Virus record (IMG/VR): IMGVR_UViG_3300045988_044939
Length of the DNA stretch: 45,701 nt
Origin: a virus
Reading direction: 5' to 3' (one strand)
Positions 1,810 through 42,677 of the stretch are shown here, one piece after another. Made by a program: the position numbers and the translations under genes. Numbering within the stretch: the first letter of the stretch is position 1; every line of letters starts with the position of its first letter. The notes beneath the pieces are model-generated. The model was not told the DNA's origin. It was given only the letters and a program-made list of their open reading frames with translations, and searched no databases.

Positions 1810-1817
1810 GTGAGTAT

Positions 1818-1970
1818 ATGTCTGAAAAAGAAAAAAGAATCATTGAAAAGCTGAAAGAAGCGATTCCTAATATGTCAGAGTTTGACAAGGGATACATTCT
1901 TGGTAAGACGGAAAGTTTTTCCGAGAATAAGCCAGATGATTCTGGTAAGGAGCAGAAAGAAAGTTCTTAA
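1818..1970 (+). CDS. 50-aa hypothetical protein (MSEKEKRIIEKLKEAIPNMSEFDKGYILG...)
   Basis: ATG 1818 after AGAGGTGAG, stop 1968-1970. Below the ORF-track cutoff. Confidence 0.55.
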   Translation: MSEKEKRIIEKLKEAIPNMSEFDKGYILGKTESFSENKPDDSGKEQKESS

Positions 1971-1988
1971 CTTGGAGGTGAAAACAAA

Positions 1989-2084
1989 TTGAAAAACAGA
2001 ATCGCATTCTGGATTCTTTGTTTTGTGCTTTCGGCTACCTGCGGAGCACTCGGAAGCCTACTCGCACAGTGGATGCTAAAGTAA
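1989..2084 (+). CDS. 31-aa hydrophobic peptide (TTG start)
   Basis: GGAGGTG (1975-1981) lies 7 nt before TTG 1989. Product LKNRIAFWILCFVLSATCGALGSLLAQWMLK is one TM helix. Its 3-prime end overlaps the convergent gene by 9 nt. Confidence 0.35.
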   Translation: MKNRIAFWILCFVLSATCGALGSLLAQWMLK

Positions 2085-2264
2085 CATCTGAGTGATTACA
2101 GTAGCCAGGAATCCAGTGAATCCGCCAACAACAGCACTAAATAAAGCTACTCGGAAATCATGTCGCCATTGCTGTTTCCGTAATTCTTTTTCTTTAGCTT
2201 CTTTTATTTGCTGTTCAAGGACGCTGTGCGGAACTATGGAGCCGTTTGCTATATTCGGTTTCAT
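2076..2264 (-). CDS. 62-aa tail-anchored membrane protein, leftward gene embedded in the early operon
   Basis: ATG (complement of 2262-2264) lies 10 nt after GGGAGG of conserved element copy B. C-terminal TM is FSAVVGGFTGFLATVITQMLL. Confidence 0.6.
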   Translation of the reverse strand: MKPNIANGSIVPHSVLEQQIKEAKEKELRKQQWRHDFRVALFSAVVGGFTGFLATVITQMLL

Positions 2265-2270
2265 ATTATT

Positions 2271-2310
2271 ATCACCTCCCATCTATAGGGAGTATACCAC
2301 AAGAAAGGAG
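2271..2310 (-). promoter_or_regulatory. conserved 40-bp leftward promoter-leader element, copy B
   Basis: 36/40 identical to 1770-1809. The minus strand reads TGGTATACT (extended -10) followed by CCCTATAGATGGGAGGTGAT. Confidence 0.6.
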
Positions 2311-2316
2311 CATAAA

Positions 2317-2646
2317 ATGAGCGAAGTTGATACTTACATCAAAGAAAATGCAGAAGTTCATCAGTTCGCCGCAGAGGTTGCGAGAATCATATCAGGCATT
2401 CCACAGATGCCAGAGTTCTCCTCGGAGAACATGAGCGTATCTGATGCAAGCAAGCTGATCGGACTTCCTGTAACATCAATCCGAGCAGGAATTGTATACG
2501 GATGGCTGCCGATCGGGACTGCTATCCAGAATAACAAGCCAGCAAAAAGCCTTTCCGGTGGCAGGATCACATACATCATAAGCCCTAGGAAAGTCTATGA
2601 AGTAACTGGTCATGTCTGGAAAGGCAAAGCTGCTCTCAATAAGTGA
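2317..2646 (+). CDS. putative DNA-binding protein (excisionase/MerR-like HTH)
   Basis: ATG 2317 after AAAGGAG. Segment MSVSDASKLIGLPVTSIRAGIVYGWLP resembles Xis/HTH_17-type helices. The upstream part of ORF 2092..2646 is antisense to gene 2076..2264. Confidence 0.5.
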   Translation: MSEVDTYIKENAEVHQFAAEVARIISGIPQMPEFSSENMSVSDASKLIGLPVTSIRAGIVYGWLPIGTAIQNNKPAKSLSGGRITYIISPRKVYEVTGHVWKGKAALNK

Positions 2647-2785
2647 GTGCCCCGGAGGGAGTCGACACCTCCACCCCGGAGCTTTGCATCTACTAAATCG
2701 CACTTAGTAGATACAGGTTAATTATAAGCCTCTATCTGCTAATTGTAAAGACAAATAAGAAAAAATAAGGAGAAATTAGCTAGAT

Positions 2786-2965
2786 ATGAGTGAAAACAGA
2801 AACGAAAATCAGCCAACATGGACTGACATCTCAGTAGCACTTGCTACTGAGATTGTCGAGGAAAGCAAGAAAAAGTCAAGGAGATGGTTCACAGCATGGA
2901 TTGTGACAGTCGCCGCACTGGTAGCCAGCAATCTTGCGTGGATCATAGGAGGTATCAGTGAATAA
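2786..2965 (+). CDS. 59-aa membrane protein
   Basis: ATG 2786 downstream of AAGGAG. C-terminal TM is WFTAWIVTVAALVASNLAWIIGG. Its stop overlaps the next start. Confidence 0.45.
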   Translation: MSENRNENQPTWTDISVALATEIVEESKKKSRRWFTAWIVTVAALVASNLAWIIGGISE

Positions 2966-6255: not shown

Positions 6256-8170
6256 AAACATTGAAAATTTACAAGCGCAAGACTTTATGGAAAAGCAGCT
6301 GTATGAAGAGCTTTTTTCAGTAAAAAGTAAAATCGACCGTTCGGAAATCAAATTCAAGCTGATGGACCGGGCAAAAAGTGTGAAAGCGAAGCATATAGCA
6401 GAAGAGTTCATAAAGGAATTCCAGAAAGCAGAGCAGGAAAAGGAAAAAGAAGAAAAAGCAAATCGTTCCATGCAGCTGGTTGAAAACATCACAAACTTTT
6501 ATCCTGATTCTGTTGATAAGGAATATCCTAATATGGCTTGTGGCAGCTGGATAGCTACAGAGAATGGAATATTTTCTTCTGAAACATCTAAGGCGAGAGA
6601 ACTTGTATGTCACCACCCGATCATGCCGATACGCCGACTGAAAAACATTGAAACAGGTGAAGAACAGATCACAGTGGCTTTTAAAAGGGATGGATATTGG
6701 ACGGAAATAACTGTTCCAAAAATTGACATTGTGACCTCTAGAGCGATAACTAATCTTGCAAGGTTCGGCGTACAGGTTAATTCAGAGAACGCAAGGCTCC
6801 TTGTAAAGTATCTGGCAGATGTTGAAATGTACAATGCCGATATGATCGACATACAGCACTCTACAAGCAAGTTAGGATGGCATGGCAATGTGTTTGTACC
6901 TTACGACCTTTCGATCGTTTTTGACGGTGAATACCGCTTTAAAACACTATTCCAGAGTATACAGGAAAGTGGAGATTACTTCAAGTGGGTGACTCTGGCT
7001 AAACAGCTGCGGTCGTGCGGACGATTAGAGCCACGAATAGCACTGGCGGCATCTTTTGCAAGTGTGCTTGTACAGCCGCTTGATGTATTACCGTTCATCG
7101 TAGATTTCTACGGACAGACAGGTGGTGGAAAGACAGTAACGATCAATATAGCGGCATCAGTTTGGGGAAATCCTGCGCCGGGAGCTTACGTTGGAAACTT
7201 TCGATCAACAGATACATCATTAGAGACTAGAGCAGATATGCTTAATAATTTTCCAATGATCCTCGATGACTCGAAGAACGCTTCTCAGTATATTCGGGAC
7301 AACTACGAAACATTGATCTATAATCTCTGTTCCGGCAAAGGGAAAGGAAGGTCAAATAAGGACCTCGGAGCAGCTAAGGAAAATACATGGAGTAATGTGA
7401 CTATTTGCAACGGTGAGAATCCTATTTCGGAATTTGCAGACTCCAGCGGAGCTATCAACAGAATTATTGAGATTGAGTGTTGCGAGGATATTTACGAGAA
7501 TCCGGCAGAGATCAACAGCGTTGTCACGAAGAACTACGGCTTTGCTGGAAGAGTATTTGTTGGAAATTTGAAACAGTTCACATCGGACGATCTGAAAGAA
7601 ATGAAAGCCGAAATTGAGAAAGGTTTTGACGGATATGACTTTCCAGCAAAACAGGTCATGGCTATATCTACACTTCTGCTGGCTGACAAATTAGCTACAG
7701 ATTTCATATTTAAGGATGGACGTGAGCTGACGGTCGAGGACGTTGTGGACATACCTACACGTAAAAAAGACGTATCTGAGGGACAGAGGTGTTATGAATT
7801 CATTCTTGAAAGTCTTTCCGTGTACGGGCAGCACTTTGATGCTCAATTCAGTTGCGATCAATGGGGATTCAAGGAAACGCCAGATGAGTATGGAGATGTA
7901 TATGTATATTTTTATCCGAAACCTCTTGAAAACCTTTTGAAAAATAATGGATTCTCCAGAAAAGCCTTTTCTGCCTGGGCAATTAATCGAGAATTGATTA
8001 AGCATACAGGAAAGAGGGATACGGTACTAAAAAGAGACGGGGGAAGCGTGATGAGGCTTATTGCAGTAAAGGTTGTCAACATAAAAAGCCTCGAAAATGA
8101 GCAAGAAAATGAGGTTATTGAAACTGGCTTTCTGCCAACTAATGCCGAAACAAATGTTCCGTTTTCGTAA
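6212..8170 (+). CDS. DUF927/SF3-type replicative helicase (primase-helicase partner)
   Basis: Walker A is YGQTGGGKTV, Walker B is PMILDDSK. The large N-terminal domain is like DUF927 proteins. Start is uncertain (ATG 6212 or later). Confidence 0.7.
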   Translation: MNCCLLSQEVRKILENIENLQAQDFMEKQLYEELFSVKSKIDRSEIKFKLMDRAKSVKAKHIAEEFIKEFQKAEQEKEKEEKANRSMQLVENITNFYPDSVDKEYPNMACGSWIATENGIFSSETSKARELVCHHPIMPIRRLKNIETGEEQITVAFKRDGYWTEITVPKIDIVTSRAITNLARFGVQVNSENARLLVKYLADVEMYNADMIDIQHSTSKLGWHGNVFVPYDLSIVFDGEYRFKTLFQSIQESGDYFKWVTLAKQLRSCGRLEPRIALAASFASVLVQPLDVLPFIVDFYGQTGGGKTVTINIAASVWGNPAPGAYVGNFRSTDTSLETRADMLNNFPMILDDSKNASQYIRDNYETLIYNLCSGKGKGRSNKDLGAAKENTWSNVTICNGENPISEFADSSGAINRIIEIECCEDIYENPAEINSVVTKNYGFAGRVFVGNLKQFTSDDLKEMKAEIEKGFDGYDFPAKQVMAISTLLLADKLATDFIFKDGRELTVEDVVDIPTRKKDVSEGQRCYEFILESLSVYGQHFDAQFSCDQWGFKETPDEYGDVYVYFYPKPLENLLKNNGFSRKAFSAWAINRELIKHTGKRDTVLKRDGGSVMRLIAVKVVNIKSLENEQENEVIETGFLPTNAETNVPFS

Positions 8171-8171
8171 T

Positions 8172-8380
8172 TTGTAACCATGTAACCGTTGTAACACGAA
8201 AAAAAACGTCCTATAGGAGAAAGTTTGAGAGTGTATAAAAAACATATACTCTAGTGATTCTCCTATATGAAAACCTTGGTTACATTGGTTACACGGTTAC
8301 ATACCTCTGAAACCCGCATAAAATAAGGGTTTTTGGCGTAACCAATAGGTCGAAAAAGTCGGTTACACGTTGGTTACAAA
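8172..8380. repeat. iteron field, putative replication origin
   Basis: Nine GGTTAC/GTAACC copies: tgtaacca, tgtaaccg and gtaaca at 8172-8196; ggttaca x3 at 8278-8303; gtaacc at 8338; ggttaca x2 at 8361-8379. Also an inverted repeat CTATAGGAGA (8211-8220) / TCTCCTATA (8260-8268). The region is noncoding and lies between the two helicase genes. Confidence 0.6.
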
Positions 8381-8477
8381 ATTAAAAAGCATATACAATT
8401 AGATTTATTATAGCAAAATTAATTGAATATTACAAAAATATTTAGTTGACATAATTATTACAAGGAGTGATTACAAA

Positions 8478-20696: not shown

Positions 20697-21926
20697 ATGT
20701 TAAGCCCAGAATATTTGCGCCGGATAACAGAGGGCAGTGAGCAAATTGCCGAAGAACTGCATCAGTATATCATCTCTGAGATCGTATCGCGGATGATGGC
20801 AAGAATCGGCAGAGGTGAAGATTATATTCTGACCAACGCCGATGCGTGGAGAATCAGAACGCTACAAGAATCCGGTGAGCTACTAGAGGACATTCTGGCA
20901 GAATTATCCAGATATACCAAACGTGAACAGCAGGAACTTCTTGAAGCGTTTGAAGATGCCGGAATCACTGCAATGAACTATGATGACAAGATATACAAGG
21001 CGGCAGGATTAAGCCCTGTGCCGCTCGAACAGTCCCCGGCTATGATAAGGCTCATGGAGCGGAATATGCTTGCAACCATGGGCGAGTGGAAGAACTTTAC
21101 AAGAACCACTGCAAGTGCCGCTCAGAGGCTCTATATCGAGCAGTGTGACCTTGCATATAATCATGTGATGACAGGGGCAGTTGGGTATACGCAAGCCATT
21201 AAAGAGGCGGTTAATAATGTTGTGGGCGATGGTGTGACTGTCACATATCCATCTGGTAGAAAAGACACGATTGAAACAGCAGTTGCACGTTCTGTTAGAA
21301 CTGGCGTAGCACAGGCTACTGGCGATATATCGCTAAAACGCATGGAAGAAATGGACTGGGATTTAGTTCTGGTCAGTGCGCACATAGGAGCCAGAACAGG
21401 CGACGGAGGTCAGAATCCGGGAAATCACTCGTTTTGGCAAGGCAAGATATACTCTCGCTCTGGAAAGAGTAAGAAATTTCCACCGTTTTCATTGACCGGA
21501 TATGGGACAGCAAGCGGACTGTCAGGAGTCAACTGTCGGCATAGTTTCGGAGCCAGTGACGGGGAATTTAATCCTTATGCGGAATTGTCAGCACAGGACA
21601 AAGCCAACAAGGGAAAGCAGTATGAAAAAGAGCAACGACAACGCACTTATGAGCGAAGAATCCGCAAAACGAAGCGTGAAGTTCTTGGATTACAAGCAGG
21701 AGTCGACAATGCACCGAATGAAAAAGCAAAATTCGCACTCCAGCAAGACCTTGACCGGAAGTCTTTTCTTCTCCAAAAACAAAATGCCGCATACAAGGAT
21801 TACTGCAAGCAGAATAACCTGAGGGAACTGCAAGACCGGCTCATGATAGCTAAGTGGAACCGTCAGAACGCCGCAAAAGCCAGAGGAGCGGCAAGACGAT
21901 ATAAAACAGCAAAGGGGATTGACTGA
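20697..21926 (+). CDS. head morphogenesis protein (Mu F / SPP1 gp7-like)
   Basis: Position after portal; the NCRHSF motif is typical of Phage_Mu_F. Confidence 0.75.
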   Translation: MLSPEYLRRITEGSEQIAEELHQYIISEIVSRMMARIGRGEDYILTNADAWRIRTLQESGELLEDILAELSRYTKREQQELLEAFEDAGITAMNYDDKIYKAAGLSPVPLEQSPAMIRLMERNMLATMGEWKNFTRTTASAAQRLYIEQCDLAYNHVMTGAVGYTQAIKEAVNNVVGDGVTVTYPSGRKDTIETAVARSVRTGVAQATGDISLKRMEEMDWDLVLVSAHIGARTGDGGQNPGNHSFWQGKIYSRSGKSKKFPPFSLTGYGTASGLSGVNCRHSFGASDGEFNPYAELSAQDKANKGKQYEKEQRQRTYERRIRKTKREVLGLQAGVDNAPNEKAKFALQQDLDRKSFLLQKQNAAYKDYCKQNNLRELQDRLMIAKWNRQNAAKARGAARRYKTAKGID

Positions 21927-22306
21927 TGGATAGATGGGAATATTACAATCCGAATCCTGCCGGGAATCGAGTCGGAGATTGTGCTGTCCGGGCAATATGT
22001 AAAGCAACCGGGTTCGACTGGGAAACGGTATTCGCTGGATTAATGATACAGGCGTGCGCTCTGTCAGATATGCCAAGTGCAAATTATGTCTGGGGAGCGT
22101 ATCTCTATAAGCATGGATACAGGCGCAAGTTGATAGAACAGTCAGAGCGATATATCTATACAGTCAATGACTTTTGCACAGACCATCCAACAGGTACATA
22201 CATCCTCTGCATAGACGGTCATGTAGTGACGGTACAAGATGGCAAATATTTTGACACATGGGATTCCGGTAATGAGATTCCGGTATATTACTGGGAAAAG
22301 GAGTAA
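21926..22306 (+). CDS. hypothetical protein with possible Cys/His peptidase-like motifs
   Basis: NPNPAGNRVGDCAVRAI ... IDGHVV. The family is recognised only loosely. Confidence 0.5.
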   Translation: MDRWEYYNPNPAGNRVGDCAVRAICKATGFDWETVFAGLMIQACALSDMPSANYVWGAYLYKHGYRRKLIEQSERYIYTVNDFCTDHPTGTYILCIDGHVVTVQDGKYFDTWDSGNEIPVYYWEKE

Positions 22307-22310
22307 CTAA

Positions 22311-22616
22311 ATGAGCATATCAGAATTTGTACAGATTTTCCTCTCGATCTGCGGAGGGGTGTCCATTGTCGGAGGGGCGGTGGCTGTAATCTTTAAGTGG
22401 ATTACCCCGGCGTTTCGGCTTAATAAGCGAGTAGAGACACTGGAAGAACATGATAGACGAGATTATGAAAGCCTTCGAAGAATCGCAGAACGTGATTCAT
22501 TGATTCTGGAAGTGTTATCAACCATGTTGGACAGCCAGATCAGCGGAAATAACGTCGAGGAATTAAAAAAAACAAAACAGAAGCTCACAAATTATCTTGC
22601 GCAGAATCAACGTTAA
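22311..22616 (+). CDS. membrane-anchored coiled-coil protein
   Basis: N-terminal TM is IFLSICGGVSIVGGAVAVIF. Confidence 0.55.
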   Translation: MSISEFVQIFLSICGGVSIVGGAVAVIFKWITPAFRLNKRVETLEEHDRRDYESLRRIAERDSLILEVLSTMLDSQISGNNVEELKKTKQKLTNYLAQNQR

Positions 22617-22639
22617 TTGCATTAATAAGGGGTATGCTC

Positions 22640-22840
22640 ATGAAATTATATGTGTTCACTAAGAAAGATATAGACAGGTTCTTGACAGAGTGTAATTTTA
22701 CACCGGATGAAGAAAGATTGTTCCGGCTGAGGTGTCAGGAACACACTCTTGAATACTGCGCTGAACAGATGAATGTGAGTATATCCACGGCAAAACGATT
22801 AAGCCGGAGGGTGAATAATAAAATAATTAAAGTGTGTTAA
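22640..22840 (+). CDS. small sigma-70 region-4-like HTH protein (candidate late regulator)
   Basis: LEYCAEQMNVSISTAKRLSRRVNNKI resembles region-4/LuxR-type HTH. ATG 22640 is better spaced from AAGGGG than ATG 22634. Confidence 0.5.
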   Translation: MKLYVFTKKDIDRFLTECNFTPDEERLFRLRCQEHTLEYCAEQMNVSISTAKRLSRRVNNKIIKVC

Positions 22841-22851: not shown

Positions 22852-22888
22852 AAGTCCCCGGGACTATCTCCCAGGGGCTTATTTTTAT
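22852..22888. terminator. bidirectional terminator between convergent genes
   Basis: AAG(T)CCCC / GGGGCTT stem, with T-runs readable on both strands. Confidence 0.6.
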
Positions 22889-23058
22889 CTTTCCGTTTCG
22901 AGCCAGATTTCGCACTGCTCGCCGTCCTCTTCGTAGCTGACAACTTCGCCAGCTTCCAGGCGTTCCCGCCAGTCTTCCGGGTAGTTCTCTGGAATATAGA
23001 TGCAGTTATTTTCGTATACTGCATTTCCTCTTGCTTCTGAAATCATATATTCTGCCAT
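22885..23058 (-). CDS. 57-aa strongly acidic protein (third gene of the leftward cassette)
   Basis: ATG (complement of 23056-23058) lies 8 nt after AAAGGAGGAAAA. Product is MAEYMISEARGNAVYENNCIYIPENYPEDWRERLEAGEVVSYEEDGEQCEIWLETER. Not in the ORF track; the track ORF 22827..23024 is a junk frame. Confidence 0.65.
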   Translation of the reverse strand: MAEYMISEARGNAVYENNCIYIPENYPEDWRERLEAGEVVSYEEDGEQCEIWLETER

Positions 23059-23081
23059 GTTCTTTTCCTCCTTTTATTCTT

Positions 23082-23252
23082 CTATTTTTTAATATCTTCT
23101 TTTACAATTCTCTCAAGCAAACTAATAACATACTCTGGAGGATTACGTTTACCACCCTCCCAGTTTTCAATTGTTCTTTTAGGAATTTTGTATTTATCGG
23201 AAAAAGCCTGTTGGCTTAATCCAGAAAATGAACGAATTTCTTTGAACTTCAT
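23082..23252 (-). CDS. 56-aa XRE-type HTH protein (Aca-like or antitoxin-like)
   Basis: MKFKEIRSFSGLSQQAFSDKYKIPKRTIENWEGGKRNPPEYVISLLERIV. ATGA overlap with the upstream gene. Confidence 0.7.
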   Translation of the reverse strand: MKFKEIRSFSGLSQQAFSDKYKIPKRTIENWEGGKRNPPEYVISLLERIVKEDIKK

Positions 23253-23608
23253 TCTTCTTCCTCCTCTTCACCATCTTTTAACGCGTCCAACCTTTCCTGG
23301 TTTATTCGATTCATTTCAGCAATCATAAATTTGATTGCTTCCACAAATTTTTCACCTTTTGGGCTGTCCACTTTTGCATACATGTAGCCCACACTGTTTA
23401 CGGAAAAAATCGTATCTTTTACTTTGGCAAATTCTCCATATTTCCCTTCGCTGGTTCCAATAGTCCAATATTTGCCACCATCAACAGGAATACTCAACCA
23501 TCCCTGGTCGTTAGGCGTTAGACAAGCTTGAACTTTTTCTACAGCCTTATGACCATATCTGTAAATCTCATTCTGTCCGGCGTTAATATAACGATAATCC
23601 TTATACAT
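23249..23608 (-). CDS. 119-aa acidic protein with poly-Glu tail (first gene of the leftward cassette)
   Basis: ATG after AAGGAGGAACAAAAAT. No family recognised. Confidence 0.65.
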   Translation of the reverse strand: MYKDYRYINAGQNEIYRYGHKAVEKVQACLTPNDQGWLSIPVDGGKYWTIGTSEGKYGEFAKVKDTIFSVNSVGYMYAKVDSPKGEKFVEAIKFMIAEMNRINQERLDALKDGEEEEEE

Positions 23609-23646: not shown

Positions 23647-23682
23647 TGATATTATAATATCACTCAATGAGTGACATGTCAA
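23647..23682 (-). promoter_or_regulatory. strong leftward sigma-A promoter with two overlapping palindromic operators
   Basis: On the minus strand: TTGACA (complement of 23677-23682), 17 nt spacer, TATTAT (complement of 23654-23659). Palindromes are TGATATTATAATATCA (23647-23662) and TCACTCAATGAGTGA (23660-23674). Confidence 0.7.
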
Positions 23683-23779
23683 TACTTTTTTGACACTTTT
23701 TTGAACTTTTTAGATTGGTACATCTATGCAAAAATATAGCTATAGAAAGTCATAGAATAAGTCATAGGAGGTGTACGAG

Positions 23780-24250
23780 ATGGCATTATATAACAATCCT
23801 TATCAATATAGTTTTGGCGTTCCGGGGCAGATGAACCAATTTCAGCAACAGTCTGTCCAGATGCCAGCTCAACCAGTACAGCAACCCCAGCAGAATAGCA
23901 ATGGTATCCTGTGGGTATCTGGAGAAGTAGGTGCAAAATCCTATCTGGTAGCACCCGGAACAAGTGTTTTACTGATGGACAGTGAAAGCGAAAAGTTCTA
24001 CATAAAATCCACAGACGTTTCCGGTATGCCACAGCCATTACGGACGTTTGAATACCACGAGGTAGGCACTCAGATGCCACCTAAACAGCCTGTTCAGAAC
24101 ATGGACAATAAATACGTCACAAGACAGGAATACGACAATTTAAAGGGCAAATACGAAGCTATCATAAACCGATTGAATTCTTTTTCTGAACCTGTTAGAG
24201 CTAATACCGTACAGGAATCAGCAGCCAAGGGAGGAAATGCAGATGAGTAA
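23780..24250 (+). CDS. Q/P-rich protein with conserved GILWVSGEVGAKSYLVAPGTSVLLMD core
   Basis: ATG 23780 after TAGGAGGTG. Low-complexity Q-rich ends. Confidence 0.6.
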   Translation: MALYNNPYQYSFGVPGQMNQFQQQSVQMPAQPVQQPQQNSNGILWVSGEVGAKSYLVAPGTSVLLMDSESEKFYIKSTDVSGMPQPLRTFEYHEVGTQMPPKQPVQNMDNKYVTRQEYDNLKGKYEAIINRLNSFSEPVRANTVQESAAKGGNADE

Positions 24251-24464
24251 TCCATTGTTTAATGCACTTGGTGGTGGGATGCCACAGGGAAACGGACCAA
24301 TGCAGATGATACAGCAGTTTATGCAGTTTAAGCAGAATTTTAAGGGAGACCCGAAGGAAGAAGTCCAGAAGATGTTACAGTCTGGGAAGATTTCCCAACA
24401 GCAACTTAATCAGGTTCAGCAGATGGCAGGACAGTTTCAACACATGCTGAAAGGAATGAAATAG
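24237..24464 (+). CDS. 75-aa Q/M-rich protein
   Basis: Overlaps the previous gene end, after GGGAGG. Confidence 0.55.
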   Translation: MQMSNPLFNALGGGMPQGNGPMQMIQQFMQFKQNFKGDPKEEVQKMLQSGKISQQQLNQVQQMAGQFQHMLKGMK

Positions 24465-24516
24465 TACATTACAATCTGGCCAGATTGATGTAAATACACA
24501 AAAAGGAGATTATATT

Positions 24517-25293
24517 ATGGATGGAAATTTAACAGCATCAGACGTTGCTCTTTTGACCGGGAACAATAGAAATGACGGCATGTTTGGCGGAGATGGCAGC
24601 TGGTGGATTATTGTTTTATTCATTTTTGCTTTCTTCGGATGGGGAAACAACGGCTGGGGTAATAACGGAAACGGCGGTGGATATGCAGCCACAGCAGCTA
24701 CTCAGGCAGATATTCAGAGAGGATTTGACAATTCCGCAGTAATCAGCAAACTTGACGGAATCAATAGCGGCCTCTGTGATGGCTTTTATGCCATGAATAA
24801 TGGCATGCTTACCGGATTCAATGGAATCAACACCAATATCATGCAGACTGGCTTCGGCATCCAGCAGGCGATCAATGCTGATACTGTAGCGAATATGCAG
24901 AATACCAATGCACTTCAGGCACAGCTTGCGAACTGCTGTTGTGAAACCAGGGAAGCTATCCAGGGCGTAAACTACAATATGGCGCAGAACACCTGCGCAT
25001 TGCAGAACACGATGAACAGCAACACAAGAGACATTATCGACAGCCAGAACGCAGGGACAAGAGCGATTCTTGACTATCTCTGCAATGAAAAGATTTCTAA
25101 CCTGCAGGCCGAGAACAATGATCTCAGACGTGCCGCTTCTCAGGATCGCCAGAGCGCACTGCTCACAACTGCAATGGCTTCTCAGACGCAGCAGCTCATT
25201 AATGCAATCAATCCAGCGCCGATCCCGGCATATCAGGTCCCTAATCCGAACACATATTACGGATGCGGATGTAACACTGGATGCAATTGCTGA
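24517..25293 (+). CDS. G/N/Q/C-rich membrane protein (YjcZ-like Gly-rich TM N-terminus, CxC-rich C-terminus)
   Basis: AAAGGAG RBS. Features are GGDGSWWIIVLFIFAFFGWGNNGWGNNGNGGG, ANCCCE and a C-terminal YYGCGCNTGCNC. Confidence 0.65.
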   Translation: MDGNLTASDVALLTGNNRNDGMFGGDGSWWIIVLFIFAFFGWGNNGWGNNGNGGGYAATAATQADIQRGFDNSAVISKLDGINSGLCDGFYAMNNGMLTGFNGINTNIMQTGFGIQQAINADTVANMQNTNALQAQLANCCCETREAIQGVNYNMAQNTCALQNTMNSNTRDIIDSQNAGTRAILDYLCNEKISNLQAENNDLRRAASQDRQSALLTTAMASQTQQLINAINPAPIPAYQVPNPNTYYGCGCNTGCNC

Positions 25294-25405
25294 TAACTTC
25301 ATATCGAGAGTATCTTTCGATTGATTTCGGATGTCGGCTTATGCCGTATTACACAGAGGGGCAGGCTGAGACCTGTCCTTTTGTGATATGAAAGGGGTAA
25401 AAATT

Positions 25406-25828
25406 ATGGCAGAATTTACAAGTGTAGCTGCTCAGACTGTAGCAGCTAATGGAAACGTAGTATTTTCAAATACAGCAGTTAAGGGTTCTAACTGCATTCA
25501 GCACAGAGAGGGAAGTGGAATCATCACTCTGAGAGGATTGACTAACCAGTGCAAGGCTAGATTCTTTGTGGATTTTTCTGGTAATATCGCAATTCCAACA
25601 GGTGGAACTGTCGGAGCTATCTCTTTGGCGATTGCAATCTCTGGCGAACCTGTATTATCTTCACAGATGATTTCCACGCCGGCGGCAGTAGACCAGTACA
25701 ACAATGTGTCCTCTGGCATTTATATTGACGTACCTCGCGGATGTTGCGTTAACATCGCGGTAGAGAACACTAGCGATCAGGCAATTTCTGTTGCAAACGC
25801 AAACATTGTTGTAACCAGAGAAGCGTAG
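25406..25828 (+). CDS. beta-rich protein resembling BclA-C-terminal/C1q-TNF-like jelly-roll domains
   Basis: ATG 25406 lies 8 nt after AAAGGGG. The pattern of alternating hydrophobic strands (ITLRGL.., FFVDFSGNIAIP.., ISLAIAISGEPV.., IYIDVPRGCCVNIAVEN.., ANIVVTR) resembles exosporium BclA-C-like domains. Similarity was judged by eye only. Confidence 0.55.
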   Translation: MAEFTSVAAQTVAANGNVVFSNTAVKGSNCIQHREGSGIITLRGLTNQCKARFFVDFSGNIAIPTGGTVGAISLAIAISGEPVLSSQMISTPAAVDQYNNVSSGIYIDVPRGCCVNIAVENTSDQAISVANANIVVTREA

Positions 25829-25839
25829 GAGGTGCAGTT

Positions 25840-26394
25840 ATGAGAGATATTAAGGATTTATGCGCAAGAATCGAAGACGAGCTTTCCAAAATTGCTGATA
25901 ATGGACTGACCACTGGAAATCTGGATATGACGTATAAGCTGATTGACATGTACAAAGATATCAAGAATACACAGTACTGGGACAAAAAAGTGGAGTACTA
26001 TAACACTGTCCTTGATGAGATGCGTGGCGGCTATAATGACGATTACAGCGAACGCGGAAGAAAGCGTGACAGCATGGGGAGATACAGTGCAAATGACGGC
26101 AGAATGATGCCGGATTACGACTGGGGCAGTTCTTATGCCAGACGCGGTGAGCATTATGTCAGAGGACATTACAGCCGCTCTGATGGACGAGATGCTTATG
26201 ACGACTATATGACACAGAAACAGAGCTATCGTTCCGGCAAATCTGAGGACTGCAAGAGGAAGATGCTTGCCGCTCTGGAAGAACATCTCGACGAACTCAC
26301 TACAGAAATGAGCGATATGTCCAAGGACGCAGAGTGCCGGGAGGAACGCGATCTTGTTAAAAGATATGTGGAAAAGCTCCGGAATATGCTCTAA
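25840..26394 (+). CDS. charged R/D/Y/S-rich protein
   Basis: TAGGAGGTG RBS. N-terminal helical IEDELSKIADNGLTTGNLDMTYKLIDMYKDIK, then RD/RS/Y-rich low complexity. Confidence 0.6.
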   Translation: MRDIKDLCARIEDELSKIADNGLTTGNLDMTYKLIDMYKDIKNTQYWDKKVEYYNTVLDEMRGGYNDDYSERGRKRDSMGRYSANDGRMMPDYDWGSSYARRGEHYVRGHYSRSDGRDAYDDYMTQKQSYRSGKSEDCKRKMLAALEEHLDELTTEMSDMSKDAECREERDLVKRYVEKLRNML

Positions 26395-26447: not shown

Positions 26448-27034
26448 ATAAGGAAGATTCGTAAGTGATTACAGTCACTTGACATAGATGCATTTTTTCA
26501 TTGATTCCTCCTTTCTTGGGTACGTGTCCTTAATAGAAAATGCAGTGTTTAGCTAACACAAGAAGCATGAGGTTGAAAAGCGAATGCAATTTCCGACACG
26601 TACCATTGCCGTTAGTGCATGGCGGCATACCTCCTTGTGAGCATATAACTGAATAGTGGAATCCAACCCGTGCAGAGGTGCGCGACAGTATAGGCGGTGT
26701 TGACGTAGCCCGAAACGTCTCGTGTTTAGGCATAGCACGTTAAATACCTTGCTAACCCGGGAATCCGGGTTATGTGGAAAGTACGTTAATGGTAGACTGA
26801 CAGGGTCGCTCCCTGGGTTCCGGTTCGATTCCGGGCTTTCCGCTTTGATTCGGTTAGAATTACGCTGTCTGTATACAGGCGGTTTATGATTCGGCTGAAT
26901 TTGCATAGAAGCAGTTGTGCAGAAACCAATGATATCAATGGAAGAACAGAAACTACTTGCGACTATGCTCAAACAACCCATGGGAAAAGGTTATTGCTTA
27001 TCCTGTTGACTGGAGGCCGGTCCGAAAAGCATAA
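26448..27034 (+). ncRNA. large structured noncoding RNA candidate (ROOL/GOLLD-class), boundaries approximate
   Basis: About 0.8 kb has no RBS-bearing ORF and starts after a promoter motif. Exact helices include 26519-26528/26595-26604 (10 bp), 26754-26760/26765-26771 (7 bp), 26903-26908/26963-26968 and 26463-26468/26475-26480. It is flanked and interrupted by tRNA-like elements. Confidence 0.55.
26775..26843 (+). other. tRNA-like element embedded in the noncoding region
   Basis: Acceptor TGGAAAG / CTTTCCG and canonical T-arm TCCGG-TTCGATT-CCGGG. The D-arm is weak, and the anticodon arm CAGGG-TCGCT-CCCTG has only a 5-nt loop with a very short variable region. Confidence 0.35.
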
Positions 27035-27108
27035 TGGAATGTAGCTCAGTTGGAAGAGCGGAGAGCACATAGCTCTTGACGTCGCAGGTTCGAATCCTGC
27101 CTTTCCGT
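27035..27108 (+). tRNA. tRNA or tRNA-like (anticodon CAU if the loop is 7 nt), atypical
   Basis: Canonical TA-GCTC-AGTTGGAA-GAGC D-arm and GCAGG-TTCGAAT-CCTGC T-arm. The acceptor TGGAATG/CTTTCCG has one U-U mismatch and a U1-G72 pair. The anticodon loop CACATAG has A33 and a pairable C32-G38. No encoded CCA. Confidence 0.55.
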
Positions 27109-27185
27109 TTACCTTGCCAGTGGTCTAACTGGCTTAATCCATTTACCTGCGGCGGCAGGTCAATAAACACGACCAGGAGGATGTT

Positions 27186-27818
27186 ATGCAGAAACTTATT
27201 GACACATTAAAATCATTTGGAATTGAGATCCCGGAGGACAAGCAGGCGGATGTTAAAAAGGCACTCTCTGAGCATTATAAGAATGCCAAAGAAGTAGCAA
27301 AAACCCTGTCGAAAGTCGAGGGAGAACGTGATGGCTGGAAAGAACGTGCCGAGACAGCAGAAGAAACCTTAAAAGGTTTTGACGGTATCGACCCGGCAAA
27401 TGTTAAAAGCGAGTTAGAGACTTGGAAACAGAAGGCAGCAGATGCAGAGAAAGAGTTTAATGCAAAAATCTACGACCGTGATTTCTCAGACGCTCTGAAA
27501 GCGGCACTCGACGATGTTAAGTTTTCCAGCGAAGCAGCAAAGAAATCAGTCATGGCAGATATTAAAGAAGCAGGTCTTAAGCTGAAAGATGGTAAAATCC
27601 TTGGATTAAATGACCTGATCGAACAGATGAAGCAGTCTGACGCATCCGCTTTTGTAGATGAATCTCAGCAGCAGGCTCAGCAGAACCAGGCAAGATTTAC
27701 CACTCATGTTGGACAGCAGCAGACACCGGGAAGCATGACAAAGAAGGAAATCGAAGCGATCAAAGACCCGTCCGAGAGACAGGCTGCAATTGCTCAGAAT
27801 ATCCAGTTATTCCAGTGA
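27186..27818 (+). CDS. scaffolding protein (DUF4355-like)
   Basis: Helical, charged, immediately upstream of the major capsid gene, with CAGGAGG RBS. Confidence 0.75.
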   Translation: MQKLIDTLKSFGIEIPEDKQADVKKALSEHYKNAKEVAKTLSKVEGERDGWKERAETAEETLKGFDGIDPANVKSELETWKQKAADAEKEFNAKIYDRDFSDALKAALDDVKFSSEAAKKSVMADIKEAGLKLKDGKILGLNDLIEQMKQSDASAFVDESQQQAQQNQARFTTHVGQQQTPGSMTKKEIEAIKDPSERQAAIAQNIQLFQ

Positions 27819-27896: not shown

Positions 27897-29054
27897 ATGG
27901 CAGCAAAAGCTAATCTTATTATGACAAATGATATCCAGGTCACGGCACGTGAGATTGACTTTGTAACCAGATTCGAAAGAAACTGGGAGCACTTGCGTGA
28001 GATTCTTGGTATCATGCGTCCAATCAAAAAGACACCCGGAGCGGTTCTTAAATCAAAATACGCAGAAGGCACATTGCAGGACGGAAATGTTAAAGAGGGC
28101 GAAGAAATCCCTTACAGCAAATTCACTGTAAAAGAAAAGCCTTATGCAGAAATGAGCATTGAGAAGTACGCAAAGGCTGTATCTATCGAAGCAATCAAGG
28201 ATCACGGTTATGAGAACGCTGTTCAGATGACCGATGACGAATTCCTTTTCCAGCTTCAGACCAATGTTACCGGCAGATTCTATGATTATCTGAAAACCGG
28301 TACACTTACTTCCACAGAAACCACATTCCAGATGGCTCTGGCAATGGCTAAGGGTCGTGTTGAAAACAAATTCAAGCAGATGCACAGAAATGTGACTGGT
28401 GTTGTTGGATTTGTGAATATTCTGGACGTATATGAATACCTCGGAGCAGCTGAGATCACTATTCAGAACCAGTTCGGATTCCAATACATGAAGGATTTCA
28501 TGGGATTCAATACCATCTTCCTGTTATCTGACAGTGAGATCCCACGTGGACAGGTTATCGCTACACCTGTTGAGAACATCGTTCTTTACTATGTGGATCC
28601 AAACGAATCTGATTTCGCAAGAGCAGGCCTTGTATACACTGTATCTGGCGAGACAAATCTGATCGGATTCCATACACAGGGCAACTACCACACGGCAGTG
28701 TCTGAAGCGTTCGCGGTTATGGGACTTACTCTTTTTGCGGAGTACATTGATGCAATTGCAGTAATTACCATTGATGAGACACCAGCACTTGGCACTCTGG
28801 TAGTAACATCTGCGGAAGGAACAGCAACTGGTGATACAAAAATCACTGTAAATCCGGCTAAGGAAAACTCCAACAACGTATACAAATACAAAGTTGCGGC
28901 AGACGCAGTAACTGTCGGATATGGACAGAATCTCAGAAACTGGACTTCTTGGGACGGAAAAGCTGATGTTAAAGCAGCAACCGGACAGAAGATTACAGTA
29001 GTTGAGTGTGACGGAACATACAAAGCACTGAATGCCGGAAGTGCGACTCTGTAA
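27897..29054 (+). CDS. major capsid protein (HK97-fold type) with C-terminal Ig-like extension
   Basis: The call rests on position after the scaffold, size and sequence character. The C-terminal 90 aa or so (LVVTSAEGTATGDTKITVNPA...KITVVECDGTYKAL) looks like a Big_2-type domain. Confidence 0.8.
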   Translation: MAAKANLIMTNDIQVTAREIDFVTRFERNWEHLREILGIMRPIKKTPGAVLKSKYAEGTLQDGNVKEGEEIPYSKFTVKEKPYAEMSIEKYAKAVSIEAIKDHGYENAVQMTDDEFLFQLQTNVTGRFYDYLKTGTLTSTETTFQMALAMAKGRVENKFKQMHRNVTGVVGFVNILDVYEYLGAAEITIQNQFGFQYMKDFMGFNTIFLLSDSEIPRGQVIATPVENIVLYYVDPNESDFARAGLVYTVSGETNLIGFHTQGNYHTAVSEAFAVMGLTLFAEYIDAIAVITIDETPALGTLVVTSAEGTATGDTKITVNPAKENSNNVYKYKVAADAVTVGYGQNLRNWTSWDGKADVKAATGQKITVVECDGTYKALNAGSATL

Positions 29055-29086: not shown

Positions 29087-29581
29087 ATGGCTTATGCAGA
29101 TTATAAATTCTATACAGAATCATTCGGCAATGTCGTGCCAGAAACCGACTTTCCACGACTGGCAGAAAGAGCCAGTGATTTTGTGGACACAATGACGTTT
29201 GATAGGTTGGTGGACGGACTGCCGACGAACGAACGCTCACAGAAGCGCATCAAAAAGGTGGTCTGCTCACTGGCTGAATTAATGTATCAGATTGAGCTTG
29301 CTGAAAAGAATGCTACTAATGCCGCTGTGAGCGGTACATCAACCGTAATCGGGTCCGGTGGTAGCATTACAGGCATTGTAACCTCTGTATCATCCGGCAG
29401 TGAATCCATCTCTTACGCAACACCTCAGCAGATTGGGGCGAGCGCAAAAGAGTGGAGCGCAGTGTATGCCGCCGCCGGAGATGTACAAAAAACGAACAAC
29501 TTACTCTTAAAGACAGCTTTGCCGCTTCTGATAGGAGTAAGGACTGATGATGGAATACCAGTATTGTATGCAGGAGTGTGA
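29087..29581 (+). CDS. head-tail connector/adaptor (gp6-like)
   Basis: MAYADYKFYTESFGN...ETDFPRLAERASDFVD is a typical Phage_connect_1 N-terminus. Confidence 0.65.
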   Translation: MAYADYKFYTESFGNVVPETDFPRLAERASDFVDTMTFDRLVDGLPTNERSQKRIKKVVCSLAELMYQIELAEKNATNAAVSGTSTVIGSGGSITGIVTSVSSGSESISYATPQQIGASAKEWSAVYAAAGDVQKTNNLLLKTALPLLIGVRTDDGIPVLYAGV

Positions 29582-29585
29582 TTAT

Positions 29586-29855
29586 ATGGACATTTCAACG
29601 CTTGGCTCATGTATAGCAATCGTTATGATCTGCTACATCGTAGGAATGGGCTGCAAAGCATCAAAAAGAATCTCTGATGAATGGATTCCGGTAATCATGG
29701 CGGTTATTGGTGGAATTCTCGGAGCGGTCGGGATGGGAGTTATCCCGGATTTCCCGGCATCGGACTATATCACGGCAGTTGCAGTTGGTATGTTTAACGG
29801 ATTGTCGGCAACTGGTGTGAATCAGGTTATTAAGCAGGCAGTGCAGAAAGAATAA
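29586..29855 (+). CDS. holin-like membrane protein
   Basis: ATG 29586 lies 9 nt after AGGAG. It has three hydrophobic segments and the motif WIPVIMAVIGGILGAVGMGVIPDFP...GLSATGVNQVIKQ, which resembles Firmicutes phage holins. Confidence 0.6.
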   Translation: MDISTLGSCIAIVMICYIVGMGCKASKRISDEWIPVIMAVIGGILGAVGMGVIPDFPASDYITAVAVGMFNGLSATGVNQVIKQAVQKE

Positions 29856-41228: not shown

Positions 41229-42677
41229 ATGTTTCATGATTTCATGAAAGGAGTTGATAATTTGGAAATTAAAGGTATTGACGTATCATCCAATCAAGGA
41301 AAACCGGACTGGTCGAAAGTGGCTAAATCCGGTATCAAATTCGCAATCTTGAGAGTACATCAGAAAACAGGTGTTGACGGCTCATTCGAGTACAACTACA
41401 GGGGATGCAAGAGCAACGGAATCCTTGTTGGTGGATATAAGTACAGTTACGCTCTGACACCGGCACAGGCTATTGATGAAGCGGAAGACGTGATCGCCGC
41501 ACTAAACGGGCGAGGACTGGACTTTCCGATGTTTTATGATCTCGAGTGGTCTAATCAGCGAAAACTCGGTAAACAGGCAGTCGAAAACATTGCAGTTGCC
41601 TTTCTGACAAGGATGAAAAAAGCTGGTTATAAGGTCGGTATCTACTGCAATCTGGACTGGTACAACGGCGTTCTGACTGACGCACTCAGAAAGTATGAGT
41701 GCTGGATTGCACATTACCCAGACCCCGATAATGGAACAATGCAAACAAGGGTAAAACCAAAAGCAGGAATTGGCTGGCAGTATTCCAGCAAAGGAAAAGT
41801 ATCTGGAATCAGCGGCAACGTTGACATGGATGTGTTCTACAAGGACTATAGAGGAACAGCACAGAAAGGAGAAACTAAAATGGTAAAAATCAGTAACTGT
41901 GGGCATGACGAAAACGGAAGATATGCAGGTGGAAAAGCAGGAGATCAGACTGGGACAGAGTATCAGATCATGAACTGGTACAGCAGACCGTGGCTCTGCG
42001 TCCTGAGATTTAATGATGCTAAAATCGCATCCATGATTGCAGACATGGCGACAAAAGCAGCACAAAACAATCTCATCGGCTACGATCAGGGTACCGCCGG
42101 AAACAGCAATGACCGGTATACGTTCTGGCAGCACTTAAAGGCAAGTAACTACGATCCGGCACAGATCACGGTAGCTTGTGAATCTGATTGCAGTGCGAGC
42201 ACAGCAGCTATCGTCAAAGGGGCTGGGTATCGATTAAATAACGCAAAACTCAAAGCAGTCAGCATCTATCTGACAACACGAAACATGAGGGCCGCAATGA
42301 AGGCTGCCGGTGCGAAAGTACTGACGGATAGTAAGTATCTGACATCTGGTGACTATTTAAAGGCAGGAGATATCCTCCTGAACGATAATCACCACGTGGC
42401 TATTGCTGTTACCACCGGTGCAAAAGTAAGTACACCTTCAACTACGCTTACCGGTACCTTCCAGACAAGACTTCCGATTCTGAGAAAGGGCAGTTCCGGT
42501 ACAGCTGTGGCAATGCTTCAGGCGATGCTGGGCGTAGAAGTTGACGGACAGTTTGGGAATGACACATATGATTCCCTCAAAGTTTTCCAGAAAAATGTCG
42601 GTGTAAAGGCAAATGGAACTTGCGGCATTGATACCTGGAAGAGAGTGATTGAGCACATGAAAGCCAACACGAAATGA
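41229..42677 (+). CDS. endolysin: GH25 muramidase + NlpC/P60-like Cys/His domain + PG_binding_1
   Basis: IKGIDVSSNQG...FAILR...YDLEW (GH25); ESDCSAS...NHHVAIAV (putative Cys/His hydrolase); LRKGSSGTAVAMLQAML...DGQFGNDT (PG-binding). The likely true start is TTG 41262, 8 nt after AAAGGAG. Confidence 0.85.
   Translation: MFHDFMKGVDNLEIKGIDVSSNQGKPDWSKVAKSGIKFAILRVHQKTGVDGSFEYNYRGCKSNGILVGGYKYSYALTPAQAIDEAEDVIAALNGRGLDFPMFYDLEWSNQRKLGKQAVENIAVAFLTRMKKAGYKVGIYCNLDWYNGVLTDALRKYECWIAHYPDPDNGTMQTRVKPKAGIGWQYSSKGKVSGISGNVDMDVFYKDYRGTAQKGETKMVKISNCGHDENGRYAGGKAGDQTGTEYQIMNWYSRPWLCVLRFNDAKIASMIADMATKAAQNNLIGYDQGTAGNSNDRYTFWQHLKASNYDPAQITVACESDCSASTAAIVKGAGYRLNNAKLKAVSIYLTTRNMRAAMKAAGAKVLTDSKYLTSGDYLKAGDILLNDNHHVAIAVTTGAKVSTPSTTLTGTFQTRLPILRKGSSGTAVAMLQAMLGVEVDGQFGNDTYDSLKVFQKNVGVKANGTCGIDTWKRVIEHMKANTK

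Follow-up and report, generated by a model that had tools for sequence, protein, structure and literature searches.

A mobile gene cassette of gut phages encodes a predicted TNF/C1q-like jelly-roll protein beside a cysteine-rich, predicted helical partner

The window analysed here, a stretch of 45,701 nucleotides (nt) of viral DNA (IMG/VR record IMGVR_UViG_3300045988_044939), is the genome of a temperate gut siphovirus with terminase, portal, tape measure, tail fibre, Hol44 holin, GH25 endolysin and integrase. Among its head genes lie five co-oriented genes, g1 to g5, which an earlier note, made from the sequence alone, had singled out as a cluster of low-complexity proteins with spore-surface-like features. 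We found that g1 to g5 form the central part of a portable accessory cassette, which is neither a component of this head-assembly pathway nor a spore-specific moron. The g4 protein is confidently predicted to adopt a jelly-roll of the TNF/C1q/BclA C-terminal domain (CTD) type, and a natural in-frame fusion joins it to the g3 protein. With a probability of about 40%, the cassette products assemble in the cytoplasm, late in infection, into a cysteine-stapled structure resembling a fibre, whose likeliest place is the virion surface. The fold of g4, the definition of the cassette and its wide occurrence, the finding that it does not depend on the head module, the strong constraint on it and the g3::g4 fusion are new here. 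The observation of the earlier note was confirmed, and its interpretation was supported in part.

A cassette of constant order and variable position

The survey drew on 275 loci from phage records, GTDB genomes, IMG/VR and metagenome assemblies; 266 were annotated by means of iterated hidden Markov models (HMMs), and clustering of g3 at 75% identity gave 44 lineages. The order g1-(g2)-g3-(g4 or cys146)-(g5) was never broken across these lineages where the genes were detected. Directly 5' of g3 lies g1 in about 36 lineages; g2 was found between them in about 10, an undercount given that it is short and divergent. In 24 lineages g3 is followed by g4 and in 11 by cys146, which encodes an unrelated Cys-rich protein, with g5 downstream of either in about 13. 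Along with g5, a small HExxH protein and two genes found upstream in the window, o126 and sig68, were detected less often. The window cassette contains no small HExxH protein. Such proteins, metallopeptidase-like, accompany the cassette in many lineages, including those of crAss-like and Bacteroides phages (loci L103 5408..5755 and 7988..8383; L106 7770..8234; L002 7928..8314; L003 7793..8134); they match phrog_1233, and one is annotated as a "PolyVal metallopeptidase".

An obligatory linkage to the SPP1-like module of portal, MuF, scaffold and major capsid protein (MCP) failed our test. The cassette adjoins MuF, scaffold or both in only four of the 44 lineages, directly following MuF in the window lineage, L001, L011 and L179, and no MuF gene was detected in 40 of the 44 within the fetched flank of up to 8 kb upstream. 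Dulem virus 33, whose MCP is 37% identical to that of the window, has nearly contiguous MuF and scaffold genes and carries the cassette 16 kb away, between lysin and integrase. The streptococcal prophage 315.5 has a head module of the same kind and no cassette, and the g3 and g4 searches returned no streptococcal phage. Further positions include the place after the endolysin in Butyrivibrio virus Ceridwen (o126 and g1 to g5), after the tail fibres in a large phage with its own DNA polymerase (L270/L271), at the very edge of a Eubacterium ramulus prophage beside host rplT, and between an antirepressor gene and Gam/Erf in Clostridium perfringens phage XP41-N3. Three viruses have a g3 homologue only: near terS and capsid genes in the crAss-like cr116_1, among recombination genes in a Bacteroides uniformis phage (C3_41T2LP, the Bacteroides carrier), and between reverse transcriptase and integrase in virus vir215, attributed to Methanomassiliicoccales. 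From this variable position and the related head modules without the cassette, we conclude that it is a self-contained, horizontally mobile unit, inserted here into the head operon.

Two observations concern what lies in or near the cassette elsewhere. In Dulem virus 33, an annotated endonuclease gene (L268 6862..7413, minus strand) has been inserted within the cassette; it seems to separate the genes resembling g2 and g3, neither of which it disrupts. In a Lachnospira intestinalis prophage, a Clostridiales-1 RNA (L004 5845..6013, minus strand; 146.9 bits) lies ~2 kb 5' of the cassette.

The carriers span a wide range of hosts, with those assigned from metagenome bins being less secure. Ceridwen is a lytic phage isolated on Butyrivibrio fibrisolvens, and the cassette is present, in part or almost in full, on contigs of Lachnospira, Eubacterium ramulus, Selenomonas and Anaerovibrio. 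The g3 family reaches from C. perfringens and Butyrivibrio phages to crAss-like phages, Bacteroides phages and Methanomassiliicoccales-attributed viruses. We take Butyrivibrio, Lachnospira, E. ramulus, Selenomonas and other such carrier hosts to be non-sporulating. The distribution of the cassette tracks the gut habitat, not sporulation or host taxonomy. The earlier note had suggested morons acting on the spore surface or envelope of a spore-forming host: their accessory nature is borne out by the variable position, while the link to spores is weakened by the Butyrivibrio, Lachnospira, E. ramulus, Selenomonas, crAss-like, Bacteroides and archaea-attributed carriers.

All five genes are real and under purifying selection as strong as that on capsid genes. 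Based on 76–102 distinct alleles from related contigs, the ratio of nonsynonymous to synonymous substitution rates (dN/dS) was 0.070 for g1, 0.039 for g2, 0.020 for g3, 0.027 for g4 and 0.021 for g5, compared with 0.041 for MuF, 0.044 for scaffold and 0.072 for MCP; the g3 value was the lowest among all genes tested. The open reading frames (ORFs) were confirmed together with an AGGAGG/GGAGG-like Shine-Dalgarno site 6–10 nt 5' of each of the five, in agreement with the good ribosome-binding sites described before. The window phage itself belongs to a very abundant human-gut lineage, for which IMG/VR yielded near-identical contigs by the hundred. At 90% identity, the g3 and g4 families comprise about 8,000 protein clusters each (>7,900; for g3 >8,000) from gut metagenomes and prophages, nearly all unnamed or "hypothetical".

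All five proteins have strong PHROG matches (E 1e-27 to 1e-64), in each case to a family of unknown function, and the five families were previously catalogued as such. Scans of Pfam, NCBIfam and PADLOC with the five proteins, their neighbours and homologue alignments yielded nothing past PHROGs of unknown function, with no family match for g1 to g5 in Pfam or NCBIfam. The statement that none of the five looks like a standard virion component therefore stands, as none matches a known virion family in Pfam, PHROG or NCBIfam. The only match among the PADLOC models was that of g3 to the coiled-coil tail of ZorA (E 0.007, 13 bits), which we take as compositional, and sequence profile searches of the PDB with g1, g3, o126 and cys146 gave chance or coiled-coil matches only.

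Products of the cassette genes and natural fusions

The description of the cluster as rich in Q, N, G and C and of low complexity applies to the g1 N-terminus, g2 and g3 (Q+N 19–29%), but not to g4, which is a globular beta domain. This A/V/S/I-rich beta protein contains four Cys and a conserved GCC motif. For structure prediction, a profile built from 50%-identity representatives was used to gather more diverse sequences, and the resulting AlphaFold2 (AF2) model is all-beta with a predicted local distance difference test score (pLDDT) of 89.5 and a predicted TM-score (pTM) of 0.82. The top Foldseek match in the PDB was the CTD of Bacillus thuringiensis F-BclA (9h38; E 5.6e-7, TMq 0.72), followed by EDA-A1 and the exosporium proteins BxpB (8d02), ExsF (9h3d) and ExsFA (7r1m; TMq 0.76–0.77 for these), and further down by BclA (1wck), C1q domains and a cyanophage tail-fibre CBD. 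Matches to the F-BclA CTD, EDA-A1, BclA and C1q had a Foldseek probability of 1.00 and TM-scores of 0.5–0.77. In BFVD, the best matches were stand-alone 130–142-aa (amino acid) proteins of gut sipho-, myo- and podoviruses, and then C1q and collagen-like fibre proteins of phages and giant viruses.

Based on these predictions, the fold that the earlier note had guessed for g4 from its strand pattern, BclA-C-terminal or C1q-like, is right, while membership of the BclA_C family does not hold: sequence identity is 10–14%, and g4 matches no Pfam family at E<=1, BclA_C included. Precomputed Pfam annotation was likewise blank for all 240 g4 homologues listed. The family forms 693 clusters at 50% identity, and its best 150 representatives are nearly all stand-alone proteins of 130–160 aa (~140); the three longer ones inspected were explained by a miscalled start or by deletion fusions with other cassette genes. 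We found neither collagen repeats nor an exosporium leader in g4.

The g3 protein (15% N, 11% G, 10 Cys) contains the motifs quoted in the earlier note, namely GGDGSWWIIVLFIFAFFGWGNNGWGNNGNGGG, ANCCCE and the terminal GCGCNTGCNC; its quoted length, the Q/M-rich character of the 75-aa g2 and the R/D/Y-rich character of g5 were likewise confirmed. An alignment of 20 diverse homologues revealed the architecture of g3. An amphipathic N-terminal peptide, often S-L-A-D-I-A-A-V-T-G, is followed by a Gly/Asn/Asp stretch, a Trp-flanked hydrophobic segment of 14–16 residues (WWIIVLFIFAFFGW) and a Gly/Trp/Asn linker. The long region that follows carries GLCDGFY, an invariant CCC, NTCA and DxLC motifs, and the C-terminus consists of a P-x-P-AY-VPNP segment and a CGCNxGCxC tail (CGCNxGCGC-like). 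Homologues range from 211 to 305 aa and share a ~160-residue helical domain, the CCC cluster and the Cys-rich tail. A double-glycine leader of the LSxxELxxIxGG type, with a GG, GA or GS cleavage site, was considered for the N-terminus and rejected, as what comes after the S-L-A-D-I-A-A-V-T-G peptide varies (G, N, S, K or R-N) and there is no fixed GG.

The proposed relation of g3 to YjcZ-type sporulation peptides was not supported. Neither g3 nor its 19 diverse homologues matched YjcZ or any other NCBIfam or Pfam family at E<=1, with the caveat that the composition filters of HMMER could mask a very short match; g3 also had no match among PDB sequences, and our literature search combining YjcZ and phage found nothing relevant. 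The resemblance is a local compositional likeness within a much larger and different, multi-part protein of 258 aa.

In g1 (12% Q; Q+N 19%, mostly within the first 40 residues), the N-terminus is variable and Q/P/Y-rich; next comes a core of ~55 aa, conserved and seemingly rich in beta structure, and then a C-terminal part with a charged tail behind it. K76 and G82 are invariant among 23 aligned sequences of the family, which at 70% identity splits into 45 clusters; g1 had no match in PDB or Pfam, its C-terminal part giving only weak coiled-coil matches (E > 1). The g2 protein (23% Q, 13% M) is probably helical. In g5 (13% D, 10% R, 9% Y), conserved N- and C-terminal segments that look helical flank an R/D/Y/S/G-rich middle with RDSMGRY and GEHYVRGHYSR motifs.

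Furthermore, we found natural fusions of g3 and g4. Three protein clusters of 353 aa each (P0068, P0069 and P0089) have the same match pattern to g3, and in P0068 g3 residues 1–222 are joined in frame to g4 residues 11–140. P0069 occurs on 12 contigs, the four examined being from separate metagenome assemblies, and its carriers are otherwise intact relatives of the window phage at about 90% nucleotide identity. The junction has a microhomology of about 7–10 nt (CTCAGAC...GCAGC), far below assembler k-mer length. What the deletion removes is precisely the Pro/Cys-rich g3 tail together with the intergenic stretch, leaving anchor, helix and C-terminal TNF-like domain on one chain. We read this fusion as Rosetta-stone evidence that the tail would normally dock g4 onto the C-terminus of g3. 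Protein databases reveal in-frame deletions only, and related contigs provided further examples: P0007 (g2::g3, with g2 residues 1–68 joined to g3 from residue 22), P0244 (o126::g4) and P0330 (g1::g4). In L272, a lineage with the g3::g4 fusion, sig68 is apparently frameshifted.

Upstream genes, candidate regulation and flanking features

The features of the locus are collected in Table 1. The cluster does lie between MuF (Phage_min_cap2 in Pfam) and the scaffold gene, as the earlier note had it, but not directly beside MuF: three plus-strand genes, o126, o101 and sig68, and then an inverted three-ORF unit intervene, and a 790-bp non-coding gap precedes the scaffold gene.

Table 1 Features of the cassette and its surroundings in the window
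Feature	Position	Strand	Description
MuF (Phage_min_cap2)	20697..21926		upstream of the cassette
o126	21926..22306	+	126 aa; phrog_3754, unknown function
o101	22311..22616	+	101 aa; N-terminal hydrophobic helix, helical charged C-terminal part
sig68	22634..22840	+	68-aa helix-turn-helix protein, sigma-70 region 4-like
Terminator of insert	22876..22856	-	
Inverted insert	22885..23608	-	57 aa; 56-aa XRE-type helix-turn-helix (HTH_19/HTH_3); 119 aa
Promoter of insert	23682..23654	-	strong, sigma-70-like
Three direct ACTTTT repeats	23684..23712	+	~11 bp apart, 70-95 nt 5' of g1; candidate element
g1	23780..24250	+	156 aa; phrog_21718 (E 7e-39); alternative GTG start at 23771
g2	24237..24464	+	75 aa; phrog_22984 (E 1.5e-27); start overlaps g1 end
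g3	24517..25293	+	258 aa; phrog_16490 (E 1e-59)
g4	25406..25828	+	140 aa; phrog_20016 (E 1e-61); alternative ATG at 25388 (18 nt upstream)
g5	25840..26394	+	184 aa; phrog_28802 (E 9e-64)
RAGATH-21 RNA (Rfam)	26519..26604	+	75.3 bits (gathering score 70.3)
tRNA-Met (CAT)	27034..27109	+	in the g5-scaffold gap
Scaffold (Phage_scaffold, Pfam)	27186..27818		downstream of the cassette
MCP	27897..29054	+	downstream of scaffold
Hol44-family holin (Phage_holin_5_2)	29547..29855	+	E 3e-23; among head-tail connector genes
GH25 endolysin	41229..42677		

The three plus-strand genes probably belong to the cassette module, which, given their place, begins right after MuF in the window. Homologues of o126 adjoin g1 or follow g5 in 15 of the 44 g3 lineages. 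Sixteen diverse members share invariant D18, C19, R22, A23, H99, D110 and D113, a pattern that may point to a papain-like Cys-His-Asp enzyme. These members matched neither Pfam nor PDB sequences, and membership of peptidase family C39, whose spacing we presume to resemble that of Cys19, His99 and Asp110-113, was rejected. Homologues of o101, which had no family match in the PHROG and Pfam scans, stand 5' of sig68 in five lineages. With a weak match to Pfam Sigma70_r4 (E 0.007) and PHROG sigma-factor matches (E 5e-6), sig68 is a candidate regulator of the cassette and lies upstream of g1 in about 17 lineages.

The inverted insert splits the module between sig68 and g1, with a promoter and a terminator of its own. 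In close relatives the insert has the 119-aa ORF at 3 loci, the helix-turn-helix gene at 59 and the 57-aa ORF at none, and it is absent in L001, L191, L192, L236 and L272. Other lineages have nothing at this spot or a different ~800-bp insert, and the site resembles a local insertion hot spot of small morons. The ACTTTT repeats between the insert and g1 may serve the cassette as an operator or promoter. A pattern of two such repeats occurs once in the window, a count that is not significant given at least one match in 33 of 100 shuffles; similar ACTTT-N5-6-ACTTT sequences lie between sig68 and g1 in L001, L011, L179, L191, L192, L236 and L272.

Downstream, the gap between g5 and the scaffold gene contains a RAGATH-21 RNA and a tRNA-Met gene. 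In Dulem virus 35, RAGATH-21 is likewise found just 5' of the scaffold gene (L001 8312..8388), and in L010 (4803..4878) it lies ~400 nt 5' of the scaffold ORF with tRNA genes in between; L003 has a tRNA at the corresponding place. As the RNA is upstream of the scaffold gene in all three loci where it was found, we rejected it as a part of the cassette and assign it to the scaffold/capsid operon. Our literature search on RAGATH-21 found nothing.

Three further observations concern the phage as a whole. The holin gene lies ~11 kb upstream of the endolysin gene, and Dulem virus 35 is arranged alike. Residues 307–385 of the MCP form a C-terminal S-layer SbsC-like domain (PF18316, E 1e-14), probably Ig-like, which is a built-in decoration domain; it is missing in streptococcal and some gut relatives, whose matches end near residue 295–300. 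Portal and MuF are adjacent in the window, unlike in L272, where a gene for a 563-aa protein with a glycerophosphodiester phosphodiesterase (GDPD) domain (1239..2930) stands directly 5' of MuF.

Candidate functions and comparison with known systems

In the assembly that we propose, g3 would be the stalk of a fibre. Its Trp-flanked hydrophobic segment would anchor it in a hydrophobic pocket or a membrane, the ~160-residue helix would form a shaft of roughly 20 nm if straight, the invariant CCC cluster would staple the oligomer through disulfides, and the Pro/Cys-rich tail would dock the knob. The knob would be the g4 jelly-roll, expected to be a trimer, with cys146 filling its slot in some lineages by positional analogy only. 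Adaptor or assembly functions may fall to the g1, g2 and g5 proteins, and sig68 would act on the ACTTTT-repeat element to drive the cassette. After release, the assembly would most likely be found on the virion surface as a fibre of the head or neck. Such a layout would parallel adenovirus and reovirus fibres and BclA on spores, with an N-terminal anchor, a shaft and a C-terminal trimeric knob.

Several lines of evidence argue for a fibre: the g4 fold, which is typical of trimeric fibre tips and anchors; the long predicted helix of g3 with its CCC cluster and Cys-rich tail; the fusion that puts stalk and knob in one chain; the gene order kept across lineages; the capsid-like purifying selection; and the distribution by gut habitat rather than host taxonomy. 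The cassette is also co-oriented with the late genes and often stands at the end of a structural/lysis operon or within it. Judged by eye, g1, g2, g4 and g5 have no evident signal peptide, which fits assembly in the cytoplasm, as for virions. Placement on the virion surface draws on other viral fibres and on two described systems: BclA/endospore appendages (ENA), which employ CC motifs and C1q-like tips for covalent docking (PMC12357932), and a crassvirus with documented small head-fibre proteins, whose authors expect uncharacterised analogues elsewhere (PMC10172136).

A number of points weigh against this proposal. The AF2 model of g3, computed from an alignment of 23 sequences that are all >=81% identical, is of low confidence (pLDDT 56): it shows one helix over residues 74–231 that is confident only around 150–210 (pLDDT about 90 at 160–200). 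The hydrophobic periodicity of this helix, ~3.65 residues, is not clearly above that of shuffles, and a coiled coil is therefore not claimed for g3. The transmembrane-like segment is unusual for a capsid or neck fibre. The four examined fusion alleles are identical and represent one clone. Comparisons with hhalign of g4 with cys146, and of either with the protein that follows g3 in crAss phage cr116_1, revealed no relation. Typical receptor-binding tips are expected to be under diversifying selection, unlike g4, whose dN/dS gives no sign of it. In Bacteroides phage C3_41T2LP and C. perfringens phage XP41-N3, the cassette or g3 stands among early or recombination genes. A module of five to eight genes with a regulator and two peptidase-like genes is elaborate for decoration, and our literature search for virion proteomics or microscopy of carrier phages (C. 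perfringens carriers, Ceridwen) found none.

A rival reading is a late module acting on membranes, in which g3 inserts into the host cytoplasmic membrane and serves the timing of egress or lysis, remodelling or superinfection exclusion. This membrane is the sole envelope layer common to Firmicutes, Bacteroidetes and wall-less archaea, and the Trp/Gly-flanked hydrophobic 14-16-mer is the most conserved architectural feature of g3, also in crAss-like and archaea-attributed viruses. The cassette is often near lysis genes (Ceridwen, Dulem virus 33, XP41-N3, cr116_1), and in L270/L271 it has the usual lysis position after the tail fibres. One transmembrane segment with a large Cys-bearing helical domain recalls the architecture of the holin T of phage T4, and o101 would be a further small hydrophobic, helical protein. 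We nevertheless regard a membrane module as unlikely, if worth serious attention: the window phage comes with lysis genes of its own, for a Hol44-family holin and a GH25 endolysin; the hydrophobic stretch of g3 is short and without flanking positive charges, which is not typical of a signal-anchor or holin segment; the partners apparently have no signal peptides, and a knob fused to the C-terminus of g3 would be cytoplasmic with no obvious role; and PADLOC gave no defence match except the weak one to the ZorA tail (E 0.007).

The position of the cassette in the window lineage, L001, L011 and L179, directly after MuF, brings to mind internal head or ejection proteins that are packaged with or near MuF and released into the host, where the g3 segment would help to form a membrane channel. 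Low-complexity proteins with hydrophobic segments are typical of the ejection proteins of P22 and T7, and the capsid-grade selection would fit. However, the missing MuF in the flanks of most lineages, the distance of 16 kb in Dulem virus 33 from the same head module and the streptococcal phages of the same capsid family without the cassette make ejection improbable, and a TNF-like jelly-roll and a ~20-nm helix are unexpected for passage through a tail channel. The spore surface is less probable still. A lysogenic-conversion module with exosporium- or appendage-like products on the spores of sporulating Clostridia would account for the nearest structural neighbours of g4 (F-BclA, BxpB/ExsF/ExsFA and BclA), for the many Clostridia among the carrier hosts, C. 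perfringens included, and for moron positions such as the lysin-integrase junction in Dulem virus 33 and the prophage edge in E. ramulus. Cys-rich motifs and the apparent lack of signal peptides fit assembly in the mother cell, and CC motifs and C1q tips are used by endospore appendages (PMC12357932). Yet the TNF/C1q fold is equally common in viral fibres, no YjcZ, BclA_C, DUF3992 or DUF4183 HMM matched, and the cassette genes are co-oriented with lytic late genes. Moreover, a near-complete cassette (o126, g1 to g5) is found in a lytic phage of B. fibrisolvens and others on Lachnospira, E. ramulus and Selenomonas contigs, hosts presumed not to sporulate, and g3 in crAss-like phages, a Bacteroides phage and archaea-attributed viruses. 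We consider a role on spores very improbable.

If the proposed fibre is correct, it could, more doubtfully, be an instance of a hitherto unrecognised appendage system found throughout the gut virome: a split fibre of a CCC-stapled, hydrophobically anchored helical stalk and a separate TNF/C1q-like knob, assembled by prion-like and R/D/Y-rich proteins, switched on by a mini-sigma-like factor and spread among sipho-, myo-, podo-, crAss-like and methanogen viruses, that serves the particle in the intestine and not the recognition of a single host. Such an appendage may aid adhesion to mucus or particles or environmental stability, and would amount to a viral equivalent of what BclA/ENA appendages are on spores. 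A module conserved like capsid genes, of five to eight genes, in viruses of Firmicutes and Bacteroidetes and in archaea-attributed viruses is one of the larger blind spots in gut-phage biology. The analysis removes a tempting but weak link to sporulation and offers, in place of five hypothetical proteins, a model with stalk, knob, adaptors and regulator that can be tested and for which cultivable carriers exist: Butyrivibrio phage Ceridwen, C. perfringens CPD1, XP41-N3 and others, and Bacteroides C3_41T2LP. On virions, the products would bear on phage persistence and adhesion in the gut; on membranes, they would constitute a new egress or exclusion device.

Among known systems, the exosporium proteins BclA, F-BclA and ExsFA (BxpB) share the jelly-roll with g4 (TMq 0.65–0.77; Foldseek E 6e-7 to 5e-5). 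ExsFA/BxpB, which in sporulating Bacillus bind the N-terminal leader of collagen-like proteins, gave the highest TM-scores and, like g4, are small stand-alone domains; g4 has no evident signal peptide, identity to g4 is only 10–11%, and the cassette has no collagen-like partner. The g3::g4 fusion resembles BclA in joining a stalk to a C-terminal TNF-like domain, whereas BclA has collagen GXX repeats and an exosporium leader, and the stalk of the cassette is a predicted alpha-helix on a separate polypeptide. The cassette is also phage-encoded, with some hosts that we assume to be non-sporulating. ENA systems likewise combine conserved Cys or CC-type motifs with a C1q-like domain (PMC12357932). 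Their subunit families DUF3992 (S/L-ENA) and DUF4183 (F-ENA) gave no Pfam match for g1 to g5 or for the cys146 of L002, and an eight-member cys146 alignment matched neither NCBIfam nor PDB sequences.

The proposed overall layout is like that of viral fibres such as those of adenovirus, reovirus sigma1, phi29 gp8.5, crAss001 gp21/gp29 and C1q-tipped collagen-like phage fibres. TNF/C1q-like tips occur in many phage and giant-virus fibre proteins, and crAss-like g3 homologues are annotated as "spike protein/glycoprotein" or "outer capsid protein/viral fiber". Unlike these fibres, the cassette would divide stalk and knob between two genes; it has a hydrophobic, Gly/Trp-flanked putative anchor, an invariant CCC and a metallothionein-like Cys tail in g3, and brings three low-complexity partners and a regulator. 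YjcZ proteins are tens of residues long, with a Gly-rich part and one hydrophobic helix. The Gly-rich stretch beside a short I/L/V/F hydrophobic segment in g3 resembles them by eye and in composition only; g3 is about five to ten times longer, has a helical Cys-containing domain and occurs also in viruses of non-Firmicutes. With phage morons, finally, the cassette shares a variable insertion site (lysin-integrase junction, prophage edge), absence from related head modules and a candidate promoter region of its own. It differs from them in its size of five to eight genes, its invariant internal order, selection like that on essential structural genes and its presence in apparently virulent phages as well (crAss-like, Ceridwen, L270).

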